A DNA stretch of 41,443 nucleotides from Gemmatimonadaceae bacterium (GTDB lineage: Bacteria > Gemmatimonadota > Gemmatimonadetes > Gemmatimonadales > Gemmatimonadaceae): NCBI GenBank assembly GCA_050733695.1, contig JBOHTO010000026.1:1-41443 (forward strand), in the 5' to 3' direction. The translations under genes were made by a program, and so were the position numbers. The notes under the pieces are model-generated. The model was not told the DNA's origin. It did not search any database and saw only the letters and a list, made by a program, of their open reading frames with translations. Numbering within the stretch: position 1 is the first letter of the stretch; each line of letters starts with the position of its first letter. Shown in pieces: positions 5,796 through 41,443 of the stretch.

Positions 5796-6857
5796 CTACG
5801 CACCCGCAGTCACTCTCGTCTCGATTTCGAGCAGTCGCTGCTTGCGCCACACCCCGCCGCCGTACCCGACGAGCCGCCCGTCCGCGCCTATGACGCGATG
5901 ACACGGAATCAGGATCGCGATGCGGTTGTCTCCATTCGCGTTCGCCACAGCTCGTACCGCGGTGGGCCGGCCGACCGCCCTCGCGATCTCGATATAGCTG
6001 CGCGTCGATCCCGCGGGAATGTTGCGTAGCGCATTCCACACCTGCATCTGGAACTCCGTACCCGGTGCATGAATCGGCACGTCGAACCCGGCCCGCTCGC
6101 CGCGAAAGAACTCATCGAGCTGGTTCCTCAGTTCGGTCAGAACCGGCGTTTCACCGGGGGCGAACACGCAGCCAAGCCTGCGCGCGAGCCGGTCGACCTG
6201 GGTCGGCAGCATCCGTCGATCGGCGAACTCCAGCAGCATCAGGTGCTCGTGCGTCGCGCCCGCGATCATCTGTCCGAGCGGTGTCTCCATGCGTGTGACG
6301 TGCACTATCGCCACATCCTGGAGCCGGGTCGGCGACCGGCCGGCGAATCTCTGGAACGCTTCATTGAATCCGCTGAGGGATTCGTATCCGGCTTCGTATG
6401 CCGTCGTTGTCACGCGTCCTCCATGTTGAATGCGACCCAGCGCCTGGCTCAGCCGCCGGGCCCTGCTGTAGGCGTGAAAGGTCATGCCGTGATGTGCCTT
6501 GAACCAGCGCGACAATCGCGACGGCTGGATACCTAATTCGCGCAGATCCGCGTCGCGCCATGCGCGCGTTGGCTCCCGTTCGACGGTCGCCAGCAGCGGT
6601 GCGAGCCATCGCGGAGCCCGACCCAGCGGGGAGAGCGGGTTGCAGCGCTTGCAGGGACGGTAGCCGGCTACGACCGCGGCCTGACTGGTGCTGAAGAACT
6701 CGACGTTCTCCGGCCTGGGCTTTCGCGCCGGACAGGTGGGTCGGCAGAATATGCCGGTTGTCCGTACGGCAGTGACGAAGACGCCCTCGTAGCTGCTGTC
6801 CCCACGCAGGAATGCGTCGACAAGTTCCGGCCGGGGGGGAAGTTCACTCGTTATCAT
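5796..6857 (-). CDS. ada: Bifunctional Ada: methylphosphotriester-DNA methyltransferase/AraC-type regulator fused to O6-methylguanine-DNA methyltransferase
   Basis: N-terminal Ada Zn-binding signature (FVTAVRTTGIFCRPTCPARKP…GYRPCKRCNP). An AraC-type HTH follows in the middle. The C-terminal MGMT domain has the PCHRV active-site motif (IPCHRVIGADGRLVGYGGG). Confidence 0.85.
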   Translation of the reverse strand: MITSELPPRPELVDAFLRGDSSYEGVFVTAVRTTGIFCRPTCPARKPRPENVEFFSTSQAAVVAGYRPCKRCNPLSPLGRAPRWLAPLLATVEREPTRAWRDADLRELGIQPSRLSRWFKAHHGMTFHAYSRARRLSQALGRIQHGGRVTTTAYEAGYESLSGFNEAFQRFAGRSPTRLQDVAIVHVTRMETPLGQMIAGATHEHLMLLEFADRRMLPTQVDRLARRLGCVFAPGETPVLTELRNQLDEFFRGERAGFDVPIHAPGTEFQMQVWNALRNIPAGSTRSYIEIARAVGRPTAVRAVANANGDNRIAILIPCHRVIGADGRLVGYGGGVWRKQRLLEIETRVTAGA

Positions 6858-7027
6858 GCATCATAATTTCGCCGGACCCGGGGCGCGCCGCCACCGGAAA
6901 ATCGACACCGAACTCGGCGCCGCCGCGAGATGGCTCCAGATGAGCACCGGGGCTCGGCGTGCGTCCCCGGCTATCTCGGCAATACCGGCCGCGAATTCGC
7001 GCCGCTCCCGGCAGTTGGCGAAGACCG

Positions 7028-9535
7028 CTACTCGTATCGCAGCGCCTGCATGGGGTCAACCCGTGATGCCCTGAGTGCAGGGATGTATCCGGCGCCCAGC
7101 GCGACAAGGGCGATGACGACCGTCGCGATCGCGATCGCCAGCGGGTCGTGGCCCTCCAGTTCGAAAAGCAGCGAACTCGCCGCACGTCCCAGCGCCAGCG
7201 CCGCGGCGACGCCGATCACGCCCCCGATGAGCGTCATCCAGCCAACCTGCCGGAGCACCATTCCGCGCACGCGCTGGCCGTCGGCACCGAGCGCCATGCG
7301 GACACCGATCTCCCGGGTGCGCTGTGCCACCGTGTACGACAGCACGCCGTAAAGACCGACGGCCGCAAGCAGGGTCGCCAGCACGGCGAACGCCGCCGAG
7401 AGGGTGCTGATCATCCGGTCGAGGAACACGTTCTCGCGCACCTGCTGAGGGAGCGTCTTCAGATCCTCGACCGGCAGGTTCGGGTCGAGCCGCTCGATCA
7501 CGCCAGGTACGGCTCGCAGCAGTGATGCCGGTGAGAGCGCTGTCCGCACATAGAAGTTGATCGATCCGATCGATTCATCCTGACGGTATGGTGTGAAGAA
7601 GAGTGGCGGTACCTCTTCCTTCACTTCGCTGTAACTGGCATCCTGCACCAGACCGACGATCTCCGTGTCCAGCTCCTCGCCACGGCCCGCGCCCATGCGC
7701 TTGCCCACCGCGTGCCGTCCGAGGTTGAACTTCTTGGCAAAGGTTTCGTTGACGATGGCGACGTTCGGCGCGCCGGCGTTGTCTGCGAGCGTGAACTCGC
7801 GCCCCGCGAGCATCGGCACACCGAGCGTCCGGAAATAGGCAGGCGCGATCTGGTTGAACCGCGAGCCGGCGTCGGTGTCCGGAGTGCGGCGAAATCCCTC
7901 GACCACGACACTGCTCCCCCAGTTGTCCCCGGAGAGAAGCGGCACCCGCGATGCGGTGACGCCCGTAACACCGGGAAGTGCCGCGAGCTCCTCCTCAACG
8001 CGCGTGAAGAGCGTGCTCGTGCGCGTCGAGTCGTAGCCATTGAGCTCCGGCGATATGCCGAAGGTGACAACGTTGTCCACCTCGATTCCCAGATCCACCC
8101 GGCTGATGTTCGCGAGACTCCTGATGAACAGTCCGGCGGAGATGAGGAGTGTCATCGAGAGCGCGATCTGTGCAGTGACGAGCGATATGCGGAATCGCGC
8201 GGCAGTCCGGTGACCCGAAGGCTGCCCCGTGCTGGCCCTGATCATCGAGATGAGATCGGGTCGCGTGCTGTGGAGCGCGGGAAACATTCCGAAGAGAAGT
8301 CCCGTGCCGATCGACAGGGCAGCCGCGAATAGCAGCACCGGCGGTTCGATCTCCAGTCGCAGCATGGTCGCCCTCTCGGCCGGCAATATCGAGCCGATGC
8401 CCATCAGCGTCCAGTGCGCTATGAGAAGGCTGGCGATGCCGCCCATCGTGGCGAGCAGGACCGACTCGATGAGCAACTGCCGCACGATCTGCCAGCGGCT
8501 CGCTCCGAGCGAGAGACGCACTGCCATCTCCATGGATCGGTTGGCACCGCGCGCCAGCAGCAGATTCGCGACGTTGGCGCACGCGATCAGGAGCACGATC
8601 CCCGTAATCGAGAACAGGAAGATCAGCGGCATTCGCGCCTCGCGATGGATCGAACTCTGTCCGCGTCGACCATCCTCCAGAGTGATCTCCTTCGCCCTGA
8701 ACCGCTCCAGCGTCTGATCGCTCATTCCCTCCTGCAGCGGCGCTTCGACGTCAATGATGATGGGCCGATACAGTGCGTTGATCGCGGTCGTCGCCTGCTG
8801 CATCGACACGCCGGGCTTGAGGCGCGCAAAGAGATACGCCCAGTAACTGCGCCGGTTCTCGAATCCGTCGAAGCCGGGCGACATGAGTCCGCGCATGGAG
8901 ATCGGCACGAAGACCTGCGGCGTGGCGCCGAGCGTCGTACCATCGAAGCCGTTCGGCGCGACGCCGACGATTGTCATGGATTGGCCGTTGACAACGATGT
9001 TCTCGCCGATCACGTCCGGGTTGGCGCCGAGGCGCGTAGCCCAGTAGCTGTGGTCCAGCACCGCAACGAAGTTGGCTCCGATCGCCTCGTCATCGGCCGG
9101 AGTGAGCAGACGTCCGAGCGCCGGTTGAACGCCAAGCAGTGGGAAATAGGAGCCCGAAACGAGCATACCCTCGCCGTTCAGTGTCTGACGCTCGTAGGAA
9201 AGGTTCGCCCCGAATGCGACGTGAGCCGCGATGCCAGTGAACGCGGTCTGCCCGCGCTCGAGATCCCGGAACATGGGATAGCTGAAGACCGCTTCGCAGT
9301 CACCGGCCTCATTGCACGACTGCGAACCGGGTTTTGGTCCTGGAGCAGTCAGGTTGACCAGTTGCTCCGGCTGCGCGACGGGCAGGTCGCGGAGGAGCAT
9401 CTGGTTGAAGAGCGAGAAGATCGCCGCATTCGCTCCGATGCCAAGCGCCAGTGAAATGACGGCGACGGTCGTGACGAAAGGCGTCTTGAAGAGTGTGCGG
9501 AGTGCGAGCTTCAGGTTGACCACGGATGCCCCCAT
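7028..9535 (-). CDS. FtsX/MacB-like duplicated ABC permease (ADOP family) with large periplasmic domains
   Basis: Listed ORF 7028..9943. The likely start is ATG 9535 ([42 protein letters not shown]), the typical ADOP/MacB N-terminus. Two FtsX-like 4-TM modules are present, and it ends with the characteristic …DPMQALRYE. Confidence 0.8.
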
Positions 9536-9822
9536 GAAGATTCCGGACGTAACGCGCCGGTAACCATCTGTCGATGCTGCGCTGAAATGCGGACCGTCGC
9601 ATGATCGTGCGGAGGCCGCACATGGTGCCGTACGGAGTTCGGGGGGTGGACGTGTCAGGACAAGGGGAGCTGATACGTCCCCGCCCGCGCGTGCCCACCC
9701 CGGAACGGCGCGGTTGCTGCCCCGGATCGTTAGCTTCATGAGTGGCGCCGTGCACCGCGCCCGAAGAAGACCGCCGTCCTTCGCGAACCGGGTGATGACT
9801 GTCCCAATGACATGAGGCCGAC

Positions 9823-10101
9823 ATGGCAGATGTGACCTGCACTCGCTGCGGCGAGACCCGGGTGGGGTTCGACCGCCCTCCCTTTCCTGGCGCGATTGGC
9901 GCGAAGATTCAGGCCGAGGCGTGCCAGGAATGCTGGGCGGCATGGCTCAAGCAGCAGACGATGCTGATCAATCACTACGGCCTGAACGTTATGGATCCCC
10001 AGGCGCGCGCCTTTCTCACCCGCAACATGGAAGCGTTCTTCTTCAAGAGCGGGAAGGAAGAAGACGTGGACACGAGCCGGAAGGGCTCGATCAACTGGTG
10101 A
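9823..10101 (+). CDS. yggX: Fe(II)-trafficking / oxidative-damage protection protein YggX family
   Basis: 92 aa. [27 protein letters not shown]……W..W...[18 protein letters not shown] matches the YggX family almost end to end. Confidence 0.75.
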
Positions 10102-13772: not shown

Positions 13773-14492
13773 TCACCAATCTGTCGCGAGGTTGGGGTCG
13801 TTCGTTTGAATCAGTCTACGGACGGCGATCAGCCGCTGCCGGAACCAGGATCGGCCGGTCACGGATCGAGTGAGCACGTCCAGCTTCACCCGCCTTCCAC
13901 CGCTCGAGGCATGGATGATCGTGTCAGCACCGATGTAGATCGCGATGTGCTGAGCGCCGCGCTGAGCACCGCGCCCGCCGTAGAAGAAGAGCAGGTCCCC
14001 CGGGCGGAGGTCTCCGGGATAGGGGGCATCGCCGACTCCCGCCTGCTCCGCAGCCGTCCTCGGGAGTCCAATTCCATGGTGCGCAAAGACATAACGGACA
14101 AACCCGGAGCAATCGAACCCATCCGTCGTCGTCCCGCCCCACTCGTACGGTGTGCCGAGGAGCATCCGCGCGGTCTGGACGATGTCCTCGCCGGTTGCCG
14201 GCCGAGCCACGGCTTCGCTGTCCGCGTCGCTCGGGGCCAGGCTTCCTCCTCCCGGCCCCCCACCCGCCGGCGCGGATGGCCCACCACCGATGTCGACGCC
14301 TATGTCGACGCCTATGTCGGCGGCGGCCGAGGCGACGGCACCCGGCATCTGGCCGTGGGAGGCCCGGGGAAGAGCCGCACTCAGCAGGGCCACAACGCCC
14401 AGTGCACCGGCGCTCGCGGGCGAAAAGCTCAGGAAAGCAGGCATCATGATGTCTGACGAAGGCGACCGCCGGCATGTCACACGCCGGATCAC
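13773..14492 (-). CDS. NlpC/P60 (C40) family cell-wall peptidase, secreted
   Basis: C-terminal domain with YEWGG…GFDCSGFV…H.AIYIG…IHAS (Cys-His catalytic core). The signal peptide most likely starts at MMPAFLSFSPASAGALGVVALL (ATG ~14447). Confidence 0.8.
   Translation of the reverse strand: MIRRVTCRRSPSSDIMMPAFLSFSPASAGALGVVALLSAALPRASHGQMPGAVASAAADIGVDIGVDIGGGPSAPAGGGPGGGSLAPSDADSEAVARPATGEDIVQTARMLLGTPYEWGGTTTDGFDCSGFVRYVFAHHGIGLPRTAAEQAGVGDAPYPGDLRPGDLLFFYGGRGAQRGAQHIAIYIGADTIIHASSGGRRVKLDVLTRSVTGRSWFRQRLIAVRRLIQTNDPNLATDW
14291..14320. repeat. 12-bp tandem repeat (TGTCGACGCCTA x2.5) encoding IGVDIGVDIG in the NlpC/P60 linker
   Basis: Read directly from the sequence. Confidence 0.85.
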
Positions 14493-14568
14493 GCTCGCCG
14501 TGTGCGCTCCGTCTCACCTCGGACGGCGGCCGGCCTGGAGCTGTGAGGTGCGTGACATTGGACCGGTC

Positions 14569-15912
14569 TCAGGGCTTCGAGAGGAGCCGTTTCAGGCGAT
14601 TCGGGCGGTGCATGATGGCAGTCCACGCGCGCGCCGCCGCGGGCGCCAGGCTGGGAACGGATCGAATGGTGTAGCGCGCGGGGTCTGCAGTGCGGCGGAG
14701 ACTGCTCCACGAGATGGGCATTGAGACCGTCGCGCCATCGCGCGCCCGAATGGCGAAGACCGCTGCGACCGACTTGCCGCGCACGTTCTGCTGATAATCG
14801 ACGTAGACGCTACCGCGCGGTCGCGCCGATACCTTGCGCGTCACGGTTGTGCGGTTCGCATCCTTCGCGACTACGCGGCGGGCGATGAGCTCCGCGACTG
14901 CGATGGCCGCATCGTAGCCGGTTCCGGGCGGCAGAGGCAGGTAGACGTGCAGGCCGCGTGAGCCCGACGTCTTCAGTGCGCCGTGCAGCCCCGCTTCGTC
15001 GAGCTCGCGTTTCACCATCCTGGCGACGTGCACGACATCGGCGAACTCCGCGCCGTCCACGGGATCAAGATCGAGTATGGAGTAATCAGCTTCGTCCAGC
15101 GAATCGACGCGAGAATGCCATGGGTCCACGGAGATGACGCCGAGCTGCACCGTGTGGAGCAGCGTCGGAAGATCACCGCCTACGAAGCGCGGCTGCCTGC
15201 CCGCTTTCTCGACGGAGACCAGCGCGGTTCGAACACCGGGCGGTGTCGAGTCCCCGGCGCTGTGCTGGAAGAAGGACACGCCCGCGATTCCGTCGGGGAA
15301 TCGTCGCAGTACGAGCGGCCGGCCGTCGATCTCGGGAAGGATCGCGGTGCTGACGGCGGCGTAATACCGCATGAGGTCGCCTTTCGTGCAGCCGTCGTTC
15401 GGAAAGAAGACCTTGTCGAGGCTCGTCACATCGAGCGAACGCCCATCGTGAAACTCCAATGAACCATTGCCGCCCATGCGTTCGATCCGATCGAGGTGCC
15501 GGATGACATCTGCGTTGCCGGACGCGGACTTCCGGCGCTCTGTCGCGCGCTTTCCTGACTTGTCCTTCTTCGAGGCTGCACGCCTGTGCTTCATCGCATC
15601 CTCCTGAAGGCTCTCCCGCTCCCTGCGAATCTGGCCCGCCGGTTTGTCGTCGCGAACTCCGAGGAAGATGGGCTGCCGCAGGCGTCCGTTCGCGGTCCAC
15701 TCGTTGAACCTGACCTCCACGACGACCGATGGTCTCACCCAGTGGGCGGACTCGTTGGTTCTCGGCACTGTTGCGAAGGGCGATCTCCTGCGCTCGAGCG
15801 GACGCAGTCGCTCATACGTGACTGCAGCTCCTGGAATCGCGCCGGCGCTCCCCTTGACAGCGCGACGATCTCGCCGTCGATCACGAATCGGGATTTCGTC
15901 CGCTCGCGCCAC
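14569..15912 (-). CDS. ligD: NHEJ LigD polymerase/primase module (PolDom) carrying an N-terminal remnant of the ligase-domain OB fold; a stand-alone PolDom may instead start at ATG 15594
   Basis: PolDom blocks: DKVFFPNDGCTKGDLMRYYAAVSTAILPEIDGRPLVLRRFPDGI…, GSRGLHVYLPL… and SVYVDYQQNVRGKSVAAVFAIRAR. The first ~100 aa (…SAHWVRPSVVVEVRFNEWTANGRLRQPIFLGVRDDKPA) match only the extreme C-terminus of LigD ligase domains. Confidence 0.75.
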   Translation of the reverse strand: MARADEIPIRDRRRDRRAVKGSAGAIPGAAVTYERLRPLERRRSPFATVPRTNESAHWVRPSVVVEVRFNEWTANGRLRQPIFLGVRDDKPAGQIRRERESLQEDAMKHRRAASKKDKSGKRATERRKSASGNADVIRHLDRIERMGGNGSLEFHDGRSLDVTSLDKVFFPNDGCTKGDLMRYYAAVSTAILPEIDGRPLVLRRFPDGIAGVSFFQHSAGDSTPPGVRTALVSVEKAGRQPRFVGGDLPTLLHTVQLGVISVDPWHSRVDSLDEADYSILDLDPVDGAEFADVVHVARMVKRELDEAGLHGALKTSGSRGLHVYLPLPPGTGYDAAIAVAELIARRVVAKDANRTTVTRKVSARPRGSVYVDYQQNVRGKSVAAVFAIRARDGATVSMPISWSSLRRTADPARYTIRSVPSLAPAAARAWTAIMHRPNRLKRLLSKP

Positions 15913-16127
15913 CGTCGTCCGACAAGTCCGACGAGATCGGAGACTATCTCCGGGAACTGATTCGTCTTGTCCTTGCCGTTGCGGGTGACGAACGCGACCG
16001 AATCAGCATCGATGTACGCGAGTATGCGGATACCGTCGTACCTGGGTTCGAACATCCAGTCCGTCGAGTCGGGAACATGGGTCCCTGTCGTCGTGTACAT
16101 GGGCGCGAGCAAAGGCAATCTGCTCAC
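15735..16127 (-). pseudogene. Decayed LigD ATP-dependent ligase domain: motif I Lys replaced by Arg, motif III present, then frameshift and loss of motifs IIIa-V
   Basis: DWMFEPRYDGIRILAY where canonical ligases have E.KxDGxR. The codon is AGG (revcomp of 16041-16043), one transition from AAG. NGKDKTNQFPEI and FVIDGEIVALSRGAPARFQELQSRM (motif III plus the DFQALQ block) follow. The frame then diverges. The next recognisable ligase sequence, in the Pol-gene frame, is the OB-fold end, so ~150-170 aa are missing. Confidence 0.6.
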
Positions 16128-16879
16128 TCGTCGTCCACCTTCCTCCGTCTGGCTGCCGTCTTTCGTCGCGCTGTTGTTCCGCTCTTCATCGTCACCTTTC
16201 GTTTCCGGCCGTCTCCGGTTGGCGTAGCCGGTTCACTTGTGCCCGCTTTCCTGCGTTGCGCCGTCGTTTCTCCCGGCATTTCCCCGGCGATCTGTTGCAT
16301 GGTGCGCCCTGTCACCACGGATGTCATCTCCTCGGCCACGACGTCGTAACCGGGCTGGGCGAAGTCATCGAAGTGCTTGATGAGAAGCCACTGGGGCTTC
16401 ACATCGGGCCGGCGCATCCGGACGAGTGCAAAGGATCCGCGCAGTCGTTCACCGTGGAGTGTGATGTCGACCTTGCCTGACGCAAAGCCGTCGCGGAGCG
16501 TGGCAATGTCCGACGTCTCGCTCCCCGGCGTTGGCAGATACGTGCCGCGGTCCCAGATCATCACGGTGCCTCCCCCGTACTCACCCTGCGGTATCGTCCC
16601 CTCGAAGTTGTTGTATTCCATGGGGTGGTCCTCGACCTCCATCGCGAGTCGCTTCACCGATGGATCGAGACTCGCCCCCTTTGGAACGGCCCAGCTTTTC
16701 ATGACAGCATCCAGCTCGAGGCGGAGGTCGAAGTGCAGTCGGCTGGCGTCGTGCTTCTGCACGACGAACTGTAGCGAGCCGCGCCGGCTCCCGCTCTGTA
16801 CGCTGCCGGACGGCTCGGCTGTGACCGTGAAGTCGCGTCTGCGCCGGTAGCTTTTGAGCGCACCGCGTCGCTTTGCCAT
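16124..16879 (-). CDS. NHEJ LigD 3'-phosphoesterase (PE) module as a stand-alone protein with a Lys/Arg-rich C-terminal tail
   Basis: The true start MAKRRGALKSYRRRRDFTVTAEPSG (ATG 16879) is preceded by AAGGAGAA. PE-domain signature FVVQKHDASRLHFDLRLE…SWAVPKG.SLDP..KRLAMEVEDHP.EY..FEG.IP.GEYGGG. The tail is …RKAGTSEPATPTGDGRKRKVTMKSGTTARRKTAARRRKVDDE. The listed ORF extends artificially to 17137 across cspA. Confidence 0.8.
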   Translation of the reverse strand: MAKRRGALKSYRRRRDFTVTAEPSGSVQSGSRRGSLQFVVQKHDASRLHFDLRLELDAVMKSWAVPKGASLDPSVKRLAMEVEDHPMEYNNFEGTIPQGEYGGGTVMIWDRGTYLPTPGSETSDIATLRDGFASGKVDITLHGERLRGSFALVRMRRPDVKPQWLLIKHFDDFAQPGYDVVAEEMTSVVTGRTMQQIAGEMPGETTAQRRKAGTSEPATPTGDGRKRKVTMKSGTTARRKTAARRRKVDDE

Positions 16880-17009
16880 GGCCGTTTCTCCTTCACTACT
16901 CAGTCGGTGCAGTTGTGTGTGGGACAGGAACACGGCGGCAAGGAGAATGCCCCGATCCTCGTGGGACCGGGGCATCTCGACTGCTGGAGTTGCGCGGCTG
17001 GGTTCCTGG

Positions 17010-17216
17010 TCAGACCTTCGTGACGTCGGCGGCCTGGGGCCCTTTCTGCCCTTCCACGATTTCGAACTCGACTCGATCACCCTCGACGAGCGATTTGAAG
17101 CCGGAGCCCTGGATCGCGCTGTAATGGACGAAGACATCGGGACCGCCTTCGCGGGAGATGAAGCCGAAGCCCTTTGCGTCGTTGAACCACTTGACCGTGC
17201 CGGTGATGCGCGCCAT
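17010..17216 (-). CDS. cspA: Cold-shock protein, CspA family
   Basis: 68 aa. [20 protein letters not shown]…[21 protein letters not shown]…GQKGPQA. Canonical RNP1/RNP2 motifs. Confidence 0.9.
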
Positions 17217-17371
17217 GGAATGTTACCTCACCCCGCCTGGGGACAAACTGTTCGAGGTCGAGCGTCCCCCGTCCGGATACCCGGCGCAGGCCGGGGCCTT
17301 GCCGCAGCGACGAACGCTTGTGTAGCCGCATCATAAACGGATGAGCGCAATGGGGGTACTGCCTCAGGGGC

Positions 17372-17581
17372 TCAGGCGGCGCCCGCGATGTAGCGGGCGA
17401 AGCGCCCGCAGCTCCTGCAGCGGAGAGTCACATGACTCCGGGGGGGAGGAGGCGCTTCATCCGGGCTGCGCTCGATCTTGCCCGAGCACGAAGGGCAACT
17501 CAGAGGATTGCCGTTCCTGTCGCTGGAGATGAGGTGAAGAACCTGAGCCGGGTTGTACGTTGCCGGACGAGGCTTTCGCAT
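17372..17581 (-). CDS. Small zinc-ribbon protein (CxxC…CxxC), hypothetical
   Basis: The likely start ATG 17581 (MRKPRPATYNP…) is preceded by AGGAGG. CPSCSGK…LRCRSCGRF form two CxxC pairs. Listed ORF 17372..17656. Confidence 0.5.
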   Translation of the reverse strand: MRKPRPATYNPAQVLHLISSDRNGNPLSCPSCSGKIERSPDEAPPPPRSHVTLRCRSCGRFARYIAGAA

Positions 17582-40199: not shown

Positions 40200-41443
40200 C
40201 CATGCACGGGAACATGTCGGGCACCAGTCACCAAGCCGGATCAGCACCGCTTGCAGGCTGCGGCGGATCGCCGGCAGCGTCAGGCCGGGAGTTTTTTTTT
40301 CCGCGCAGCGTTTCCAGGACGAGGAACGCGTAGGCCATTGAGGCAAGCGTGACGTGATGATGCCACCCTGGCCACGAACGCCCTTCGAAATGATCGAGGC
40401 CGAGTTCATCCTTGAGTTCGCGATAATCCTGCTCGATACGCCAGCGCCCTTTCGCGAGGCGGACGGCACGCCGGAGCCCGAGCACTTCACCGGGGAGGTG
40501 CGCCAGCCAGTAGTGCGTCGGCGCGTCGGCGCCGCGCGGCCATTCGATCAGCAGCGCGAGGGGGGCCGTCGGCAGGTTGCGCGTAGTGGTCCAGCGGTGC
40601 GACGGCCACAGGGACGTCTGCGCGAAGCGCGAGCGCAGGGCCCCTTTGGTGCCCTGGCGCCACGTCACCGAGCGCCACGCGTCGGTGGGCAGCGTCGCGG
40701 CGATCGCATCCAACGCGAGCGGCTCGGACAGCGCGGCCCGGGGCACGCGACGCCGCGGGCGTCCTCGCCCCGTATACGGCGGGGGCCCGGCGGGGGCGGG
40801 CTGCTCGGACCACCCTTTCACGCTGGGCGCAACCTGGACACAGTACGGGAGCCCGCGCGCGGTGAGCGCGGCGCGGAAGTCGTGGCTCGTTCCGTACCCC
40901 GCATCCGCGAGCACCACCCGCGATCCCACGCCCCACGCGCGCACCCGATCGAGCGCGGCGAGGGCGAGATCGGCCTTGGTGTGATATGTCACGCTGTCCG
41001 GAACACGCGCGGCGGCCCGGCGGTCCGCATCCGCGATCCACGCCTCGGGCAGGAACAGGCCCCAGGTGAGGGGCAGACAGGCGCGGTCGGTGCCCAGATG
41101 GACACTCACCGCGACCTGGCAGTTCGCCGTCTTCCCGAGCGCCCCGCAGTACTGGCGGCCGACGCCGACCGACTGGTCGCCCTGCTTGGGGAAACTCGTC
41201 TCATCAATGATGAGCACCGCCTCCGGCAGCAGGCGATCGAGCAGCAGTCCGGTCAGGGCCGCCTGCACCGGCACCCACTCCCACGGGCTCTGATTCACGA
41301 ACTGCCGCAGCGCCTGCACGTCGGCGCCCGGGAGCCGCGCCACCATGGGCTCGATCGACTTGCGTTCCCCGTCCAGCAGCAAGCCGCGCACATACAGTCC
41401 GGCCTGCGTCCGACGCTCCACACGGCCGAGCAACGGGACGAGC
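40200..41443 (-). mobile_element. IS701-family insertion sequence, partial (one end at ~40200-40230)
   Basis: Transposase as above. The AT-rich segment with CTAGTA-C-TACTAG palindrome (40166-40178) just outside the transposase stop may mark the element boundary or target. Confidence 0.55.
40228..41443 (-). CDS. IS701-family DDE transposase, partial (N-terminus beyond window end)
   Basis: …LIIDETSFPKQGDQSVGVGRQYCGALGKTANCQVAVSVHL…, …VVLADAGYGTS.DFR..L…, …W.RGTKG.L.SRFA… and …RWRIEQDYRELKDELGLDHFEGRSW.GWHHHVTLA.MAYAFLVL match the IS701/ISAzo-type DDE transposase block order. The frame stays open to the window edge. Confidence 0.75.
   Translation of the reverse strand, partial: LVPLLGRVERRTQAGLYVRGLLLDGERKSIEPMVARLPGADVQALRQFVNQSPWEWVPVQAALTGLLLDRLLPEAVLIIDETSFPKQGDQSVGVGRQYCGALGKTANCQVAVSVHLGTDRACLPLTWGLFLPEAWIADADRRAAARVPDSVTYHTKADLALAALDRVRAWGVGSRVVLADAGYGTSHDFRAALTARGLPYCVQVAPSVKGWSEQPAPAGPPPYTGRGRPRRRVPRAALSEPLALDAIAATLPTDAWRSVTWRQGTKGALRSRFAQTSLWPSHRWTTTRNLPTAPLALLIEWPRGADAPTHYWLAHLPGEVLGLRRAVRLAKGRWRIEQDYRELKDELGLDHFEGRSWPGWHHHVTLASMAYAFLVLETLRGKKNSRPDAAGDPPQPASGADPAW

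Follow-up and report, generated by a model that had tools for sequence, protein, structure and literature searches.

Probable decay of a csp–ku–PE–ligD end-joining operon at a split ligD locus of a Gemmatimonadaceae bacterium

On the minus strand of a 41,443-nt stretch of DNA from an uncultured, soil-type Gemmatimonadaceae bacterium (contig JBOHTO010000026.1 of assembly GCA_050733695.1; this whole stretch is called the window below), the parts of the non-homologous end-joining (NHEJ) protein LigD lie side by side in three reading frames: a phosphoesterase (PE) gene at 16124-16879, a fragment of the ligase (Lig) domain at 15735-16127, and an open reading frame (ORF) at 14569-15912 in which a remnant of the ligase's OB fold precedes the primase-polymerase (Pol) domain. 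An ORF listing of the window bore out the coordinates of all three as an earlier note on this DNA had given them, with lengths of 251, 130 and 447 aa, respectively. The locus raises the question of whether this layout is a functional split of LigD or a system in decay. End joining is found in about 22% of bacterial genomes, with a history of numerous gains and losses, and many split, “non-conventional” layouts are known (PMC7719229). We consider it likely that the whole csp–ku–PE–ligD(Lig-Pol) operon is decaying here rather than functionally split. The course of events that we infer would have comprised a deletion of ku that left a 130-nt spacer behind, a single AAG-to-AGG change that turned the AMP-accepting lysine of ligase motif I into arginine, and a ~469-nt (3n+1) deletion between two copies of GTATG that took motifs IIIa, IV and V as well as the initial ~40% of the OB fold and changed the reading frame. 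Without Ku and with a dead ligase, the locus would be unable to support end joining, and PE (with its own ribosome-binding site) and Pol would be intact because the decay is recent, not because of any demonstrated selection.

The ligase was assessed by matching the ORFs to Pfam and NCBIfam profiles with curated cutoffs and by aligning both ligase pieces with the homologues P0002, P0003 and P0014 as well as with 71 full-length homologues; residue numbers below refer to P0002, a Lig-Pol protein of 690 aa encoded at locus L003 that is the closest intact relative (64% identity). The 130-aa ORF matched PF01068 at positions 14-102 of 204 only and TIGR02779 at positions 3-91 of 302, while the 447-aa ORF matched positions 36-94 of 94 of PF04679, that is, the last 59 of the OB domain; with 70 and 51.9 bits for TIGR02779, both ligase pieces fell below the family threshold of 227.75. 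In the alignments, ligase homology ended at …ARFQELQSRM (residue 108, window position 15813) and restarted at YERLRPLE (residue 264, window position 15816) with a frame offset of 3n+1. Absent are the 155 residues 109-263, equivalent to residues ~103-242 of the M. tuberculosis LigD ligase-domain structure 1VS0, to which the two remaining pieces aligned at residues 9-102 and 243-310. The missing span holds motifs IIIa (IVFDLL, 128), IV (EGVIAK, 186) and V (WRKLK, 206), the initial ~40% of the OB fold and 41 of the columns that are conserved in the 71-homologue alignment, and no tblastn trace of it was found in any frame of the window.

The earlier note had described a decayed ligase between readable PE and Pol, with motifs IIIa, IV and V absent and the two ligase pieces in different frames, and this description holds: the alignment to 1VS0 as a characterised LigD leaves the span of motifs IIIa-V unmatched in the existing frames. 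Its measures have to be revised, since only 105 codons of the 130-aa fragment that it had rightly taken for N-terminal ligase are ligase and the last 25 (15735-15812) are an out-of-frame read-through tail without ligase homology; the OB end comprises about 66 aa instead of ~45; and the loss from the OB fold is about 40%, where the note had put it at most of the fold.

A second, independent lesion in the ligase had been overlooked. Motif III (DGE) is present (FVIDGEIVAL, 15864-15878) and aligns with the relatives and with 1VS0. The lysine of motif I, found in 72 of the 72 homologues with readable motif I, is an arginine in the window (AGG, 16041-16043); it aligns to the adenylated lysine of 1VS0 (FEGKWDG), and the change was scored as K37R at a conserved column. 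Because of this substitution together with the loss of motifs IIIa, IV and V, the ligase is predicted to be able neither to adenylate itself nor to seal nicks. The OB fold, moreover, is incomplete and out of frame with the nucleotidyltransferase domain. Judged by its sequence, the remnant falls short in four of the five features that define a ligase and should be treated as a pseudogene. For annotation, this means a ligD pseudogene next to a stand-alone PE gene, and LigD domain hits should not lead to the organism being counted as proficient in end joining.

We give almost no credence to a natural split of LigD, in which N-terminal ligase and OB-Pol pieces would reassemble, or to programmed frameshifting between them. 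The two window ORFs do overlap, and many database proteins of the family start at the conserved Met263, where the OB remnant of the window begins. However, the 155 residues with motifs IIIa-V are missing in every frame, so that frameshifting cannot restore a ligase, and the catalytic lysine is an arginine. A conserved LigD split at Met263 was considered in its own right and rejected: among the 8 database proteins that start there, both that were looked up (P0046 and P0077) are contig-edge starts, and the split is also disfavoured by loci L007 and L008, which carry single in-frame stops at different codons. These stops (TAG at the Tyr264 codon, L007:2955-2957; TGA ~20 codons upstream, L008:1874-1876) lie in fused PE-Lig-Pol genes that both come from ENA assembly ERZ1758394, and they may be nonsense mutations or consensus errors.

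At the junction of the two ligase pieces, the window reads …CAG TCA CGT ATG AGC GAC TGC…. In relatives, the 5' site reads CGN-ATG-CAC (after LQxRM), and the Met-Tyr of the 3' site is encoded by ATG-TAC/TAT. Most likely, the deletion occurred between two GTATG microhomologies, …C GTATG CAC… and …AT GTATG AGC…; a GTATG-to-GTATG loss would amount to ~469 nt in P0002 coordinates, a length of 3n+1 that matches both the frame offset and the junction. It is because of this length that the gene would have changed frame.

It is very unlikely that misassembly or a consensus error introduced the deletion and the frameshift into what is really an intact Lig-Pol gene. The source is a metagenome-assembled genome (MAG), short-repeat collapse is able to make deletions, and the suspicious single-base in-frame stops of L007 and L008 show up in two related contigs of one assembly. 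Yet the window, assembly GCA_975103745.1 (locus L001) and the Logan assembly of SRR27067779 (L002) align without gaps and show no difference within 14569-17137. Relative to the window, L001 has single-nucleotide polymorphisms (SNPs) at 9 positions elsewhere and L002 at 1 position, with L002 sharing some alleles of L001 and not others; three pipelines with three SNP patterns therefore contain one and the same junction and one and the same Lys-to-Arg codon, and gene calls of 251, 130 and 389 aa are common to L001 and L002. A 5-nt repeat is also far below the length needed for assembly collapse, and the two independent ligase lesions and the missing ku agree in direction. The features of the locus are collected in Table 1.

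Table 1. Features of the ligD locus and its flanks, in window coordinates
Feature	Coordinates	Strand	Basis or remark
Cold-shock domain gene csp	17010..17216	-	PF00313 on identical locus L001; 5' anchor of the csp-ku-PE-ligD neighbourhood
csp-PE spacer, 130 nt	16880..17009	-	ku position in relatives; no Ku by tblastn
Stand-alone PE, 251 aa, intact	16124..16879	-	PF13298, TIGR02777
Ligase nucleotidyltransferase remnant, 105 codons, motifs I and III only	15813..16127	-	P0002 residues 15-108 align to 16109-15813
Motif I codon AGG (Arg29), EPRYDG	16041..16043	-	AAG (Lys) in relatives (EPKYDG)
Deletion junction GTATG, meeting point of the two frames	15813..15817	-	Sequence
Out-of-frame read-through tail, 25 codons plus TGA	15735..15812	-	Ligase alignment ends at ~residue 105-107
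GTGA overlap of fragment stop and Pol-frame GTG	15735..15738	-	Sequence; gene calls of L001 and L002
OB-fold C-terminal ~66 residues (YERLRPLE…GVRDDK), Pol frame	15619..15816	-	PF04679 positions 36-94 of 94
Lys/Arg-rich OB-Pol linker	15448..15618	-	Alignment with relatives
LigD-type primase-polymerase (Pol), full length	14569..15447	-	PF21686
NlpC/P60 gene, conserved downstream neighbour of ligD; 3' synteny anchor	13773..14447	-	Gene calls, synteny

In bacterial two-component NHEJ, ku usually lies within 10 kb of ligD. The earlier note had found no Ku gene adjacent to the locus, and none was detected in the 41-kb window (best tblastn with the Ku of L007, E = 1.4; PF02735 absent among the gene domain calls). 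The note had passed over this absence as neutral context, a view that does not survive comparison with syntenic relatives. In the window, csp (17010-17216) is followed by 130 nt and then PE; exactly between csp and PE, L007, L015 and L017 carry a ku gene of 285-290 aa, and in L003 the partial ORF that immediately precedes PE encodes a typical Ku C-terminus. L015 and L017, which share the flanking genes of the window, read csp–ku–PE–LigPol–NlpC/P60, and L007 reads csp–ku–PE-Lig-Pol; past NlpC/P60, the relatives continue with a pair of small ORFs and the genes for an NrtR-type Nudix regulator, a GH3 glycosidase and an iron-trafficking protein. Because syntenic relatives carry ku in exactly this slot, we conclude that the gene has been deleted from the locus of the window. 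The csp-PE spacer contains no coding trace of a ku remnant, only 15-21 nt (16934-16954) that match the 3' half of a block situated upstream of ku in relatives. This block of ~45 nt (…TATCACAAAnnTTGnTnTCCACAcGCGGCAyTCnnCTTGC…) is conserved between csp and ku at L017:3150-3215, L015:~600-660 and L007:~470-530, is still present at L004:~5900-5960 despite the ku deletion in that locus, and may be a promoter or operator of the ku-ligD operon.

The same comparison bears on the stand-alone PE, which the earlier note had described as one part of a split LigD locus. The relatives encode PE and Lig-Pol in two overlapping genes, and L003, L017 and the window alike show a 4-nt stop/start overlap between them (in the window, GTGA at 16124-16127, where the GTG start of the ligase fragment overlaps the PE stop). 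A separate PE in front of Lig-Pol is for this reason the normal layout of the clade and no symptom of decay.

PE and Pol are indeed separately readable, as had been proposed. PE matched PF13298 over its full length (147 bits, positions 1-107 of 107) and TIGR02777 with 210.4 bits against a cutoff of 144. Within its ORF (16124-17137), the true start codon is the ATG at 16879, preceded by GAAGGAG with the Shine-Dalgarno motif GGAG 9 nt ahead. Compared with the PE of P. aeruginosa LigD (2LJ6, E = 4e-49), all active-site positions considered are identical; we take these to be, in P. aeruginosa numbering, the metal site His42/His48/Asp50 and the further residues Arg14, Asp15, Glu21, Gln40, Arg52, Lys66, Arg76, Glu82, His84 and Tyr88. 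The protein also retains 84 of the 87 columns conserved at a level of at least 95%, and its homologues are nearly all stand-alone proteins of 200-270 aa. By all these marks the PE gene appears intact, with its active-site residues kept.

Pol matched PF21686 with 247 bits (cutoff 27.4) at positions 1-247 of 254 and reached 213.3 bits with TIGR02778, 1.4 below the cutoff of 214.7. The motifs ILDLDP (DxD), VYVDY (third Asp) and LKTSGSRGLHV (KTSG…G.H, nucleotide-binding) align with the structures 5DMU and 6SA0, and 59 of 63 conserved columns are retained. Its homologues are nearly all two-domain Lig-Pol proteins of ~670-700 aa without PE, and a scan of the genome contig collection with the Pol protein returned only four distant loci of 32-37% identity. 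Both PE and Pol had been credited with Lys/Arg-rich tails: PE has one at its C-terminus, and the stretch next to Pol is the normal OB-Pol linker, which is also found in relatives.

Translation of Pol could begin at either of two internal sites. One, a possible site of re-initiation, is the GTG of the GTGA at 15735-15738 (start at 15738), from which the 389-aa product called in L001 and L002 begins. The other is an AGGAGG-N5-ATG at 15592-15605 in the linker (start at 15594), which would yield a 342-aa Pol and whose Met is missing from relatives. The window contains only four sites of this type, a count that 9% of shuffled sequences reach.

Several observations weigh against decay as a full account of the locus. 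PE and Pol carry no disabling lesion, and the strong Shine-Dalgarno-ATG site, which relatives do not have, coincides exactly with the start of the Pol linker, a position that fits a Pol still in use. Identity to P0002 is 54.5% for the ligase fragment, as compared with 65-73% in five intact relatives, while Pol with 66% identity lies within the range of 55-74% seen in relatives; lineage-specific changes number 20 versus 6 in the ligase fragment and 33 versus 16 in Pol, both counted with a consensus rather than a strict outgroup. Such divergence of the ligase fragment in excess of Pol hints at differential constraint on the two. The GTATG mechanism, for its part, depends on an ancestral sequence that is reconstructed rather than observed, so that it is a consistent inference only, and the genome may hold another ku/ligD or a LigC-type ligase outside the 41 kb, which makes loss of end joining a conclusion about this locus that extends to the organism only by extrapolation.

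These points feed a rival explanation, namely that selection maintains PE and Pol as a pair that heals ends and fills gaps independently of Ku, while the products are sealed by a separate ATP-dependent ligase encoded elsewhere. The mycobacterial LigC/Prim-PolC excision-repair complex and the stand-alone archaeal NHEJ enzymes would be models for such repurposing, and the former offers a precedent (PMC5663958). Both ORFs retain their catalytic residues; PE has its own Shine-Dalgarno sequence and Pol the AGGAGG-N5-ATG, whose Met does not occur in relatives; the solved structures that match Pol best are those of stand-alone enzymes (5DMU and the Prim-PolC-like 6SA0); and an intact Pol domain also survives in the independently eroded lineage of L004 (see below). 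However, the argument from the Shine-Dalgarno-ATG site is post hoc, and no ligase that could act in trans was found within the 41 kb. The numbers of changes at conserved columns, 4 of 63 in Pol and 3 of 87 in PE, are both at the top of the family distribution, which relaxed constraint fits as well as a long branch does. In a regression of the N-terminal ligase on Pol over 2,485 pairs, the window had a residual of -0.046, with five intact sequences lower, and was no outlier. The signals of differential constraint are thus weak and mixed, and not decisive. What remains of the ligase is also well preserved (26 of 29 conserved columns and zero internal stops in the ligase remnant; 27 of 28 columns in the OB remnant). 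The state of the ligase remnant points to a recent event, and because of this recency an intact PE and Pol next to it are what neutrality would predict. The earlier note had suggested ongoing loss of the ligase with retention of the end-processing modules; the loss of the ligase stands, and convincing selection on PE and Pol did not emerge. We therefore regard their maintenance by selection as unlikely and decay of the operon as the better account.

Erosion of the same locus is seen in two further lineages, independently of the window. In three assemblies (L004, L005 and L006), csp is directly followed by the gene for P0040, a protein of 616 aa (L004:5851-7851) in which the last ~60 residues of PE continue in frame into Lig, beginning at residue ~123, and then into Pol. 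Ku and the NlpC/P60 neighbour are absent from these loci, as are PE residues 1-184 and Lig residues 1-122 (including motifs I and III). L016 (Gemmatimonadaceae MAG GCA_035689265.1; 4583-7034) shows a third state of the locus: next after csp comes an intact Lig-Pol whose start is the conserved Met19, with neither ku nor PE. Between L004 and L005, the P0040 gene has only 2 synonymous differences, which leaves a comparison of dN/dS uninformative. The two loci are nearly identical over 7.8 kb (four single-base differences) up to the last ligD codons and from ~7845 onwards diverge by ~5% with additional indels; this could mark a recombination breakpoint or a chimeric assembly.

The window is a further case of a known phenomenon, in agreement with the published frequent loss of end joining, and all of its pieces belong to well-characterised families. 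Its interest lies in a clean and datable dismantling of an end-joining operon by ku deletion, active-site substitution and a short-microhomology deletion. Pol has been kept after loss of Ku and the ligase core both in the lineage of the window, where PE is kept as well, and independently in that of L004. On this basis one could speculate, against our own expectation, that the csp-linked operon of Gemmatimonadaceae repeatedly sheds Ku and the ligase core while retaining a selected Pol with a repair role independent of Ku and of the LigD ligase. If true, this role would be served here by a new stand-alone Pol of 342-389 aa made from an internal start, and PE and Pol that are maintained and expressed without Ku and ligase would raise the importance of the locus.

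Among known systems, the two-gene LigD of Gemmatimonadaceae (P0002/L003, P0005/L015 and P0006/L017) is closest, with the same gene order, neighbours and 4-nt overlap as in the window and 64-69% identity in Pol and PE. The window differs from it by the lack of ku, the arginine in motif I, the loss of ligase residues 109-263 and the frameshift. P. aeruginosa LigD, a single polypeptide with PE (2LJ6/3N9B), Lig and Pol (2FAO; E = 3e-31 for the Pol of the window), has the same domain order, and its profile NF004628 was matched in order; unlike in that protein, PE is a separate gene in the window and the ligase core is destroyed. The ligase remnants and Pol also align with M. tuberculosis LigD (1VS0 and 2IRU; E = 3e-30 for the PolDom 2IRU), yet its order is Pol-PE-Lig, residues ~103-242 of 1VS0 have no counterpart in the window, and its adenylated lysine stands opposite an arginine. 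The best or near-best structural matches are the Pol (5DMU, E = 9e-50, an NHEJ polymerase) and PE (5DMP, E = 5.5e-48) of Methanocella paludicola, which are separate polypeptides, and stand-alone PEs are known from archaea (PMC3082917). These archaeal systems have an intact separate ligase and Ku, whereas neither is present in the window and its Pol is separate through deletion. Finally, the mycobacterial LigC/Prim-PolC excision-repair complex (PMC5663958; 6SA0 and 5OP0) employs a LigD-like Pol without Ku, and the Pol of the window matched 6SA0 with E = 3e-41; unlike in that system, no LigC-type ligase gene lies near, and the kinship goes no further than a shared Pol fold family.

Scans of 14300-17400 for sigma-70 promoters and intrinsic terminators found none, nor did scans of the window for tRNAs and Rfam families. 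Of the nine SNPs that separate the window from GCA_975103745.1, six lie in a single gene, that of a MacB/FtsX-type ABC permease (7028-9946), and the ligD locus contains none. Another DNA-repair gene lies 8 kb from the ligD relic: an Ada-type gene at 5796-6860 with an Ada zinc-binding domain, an AraC-type helix-turn-helix and a methylguanine methyltransferase DNA-binding domain, which appears intact. At the right end of the contig, a DDE_5/IS701-like transposase ORF (40228-41442) runs past the edge, and a repeated insertion sequence at this position is a plausible cause for the stop of the assembly.

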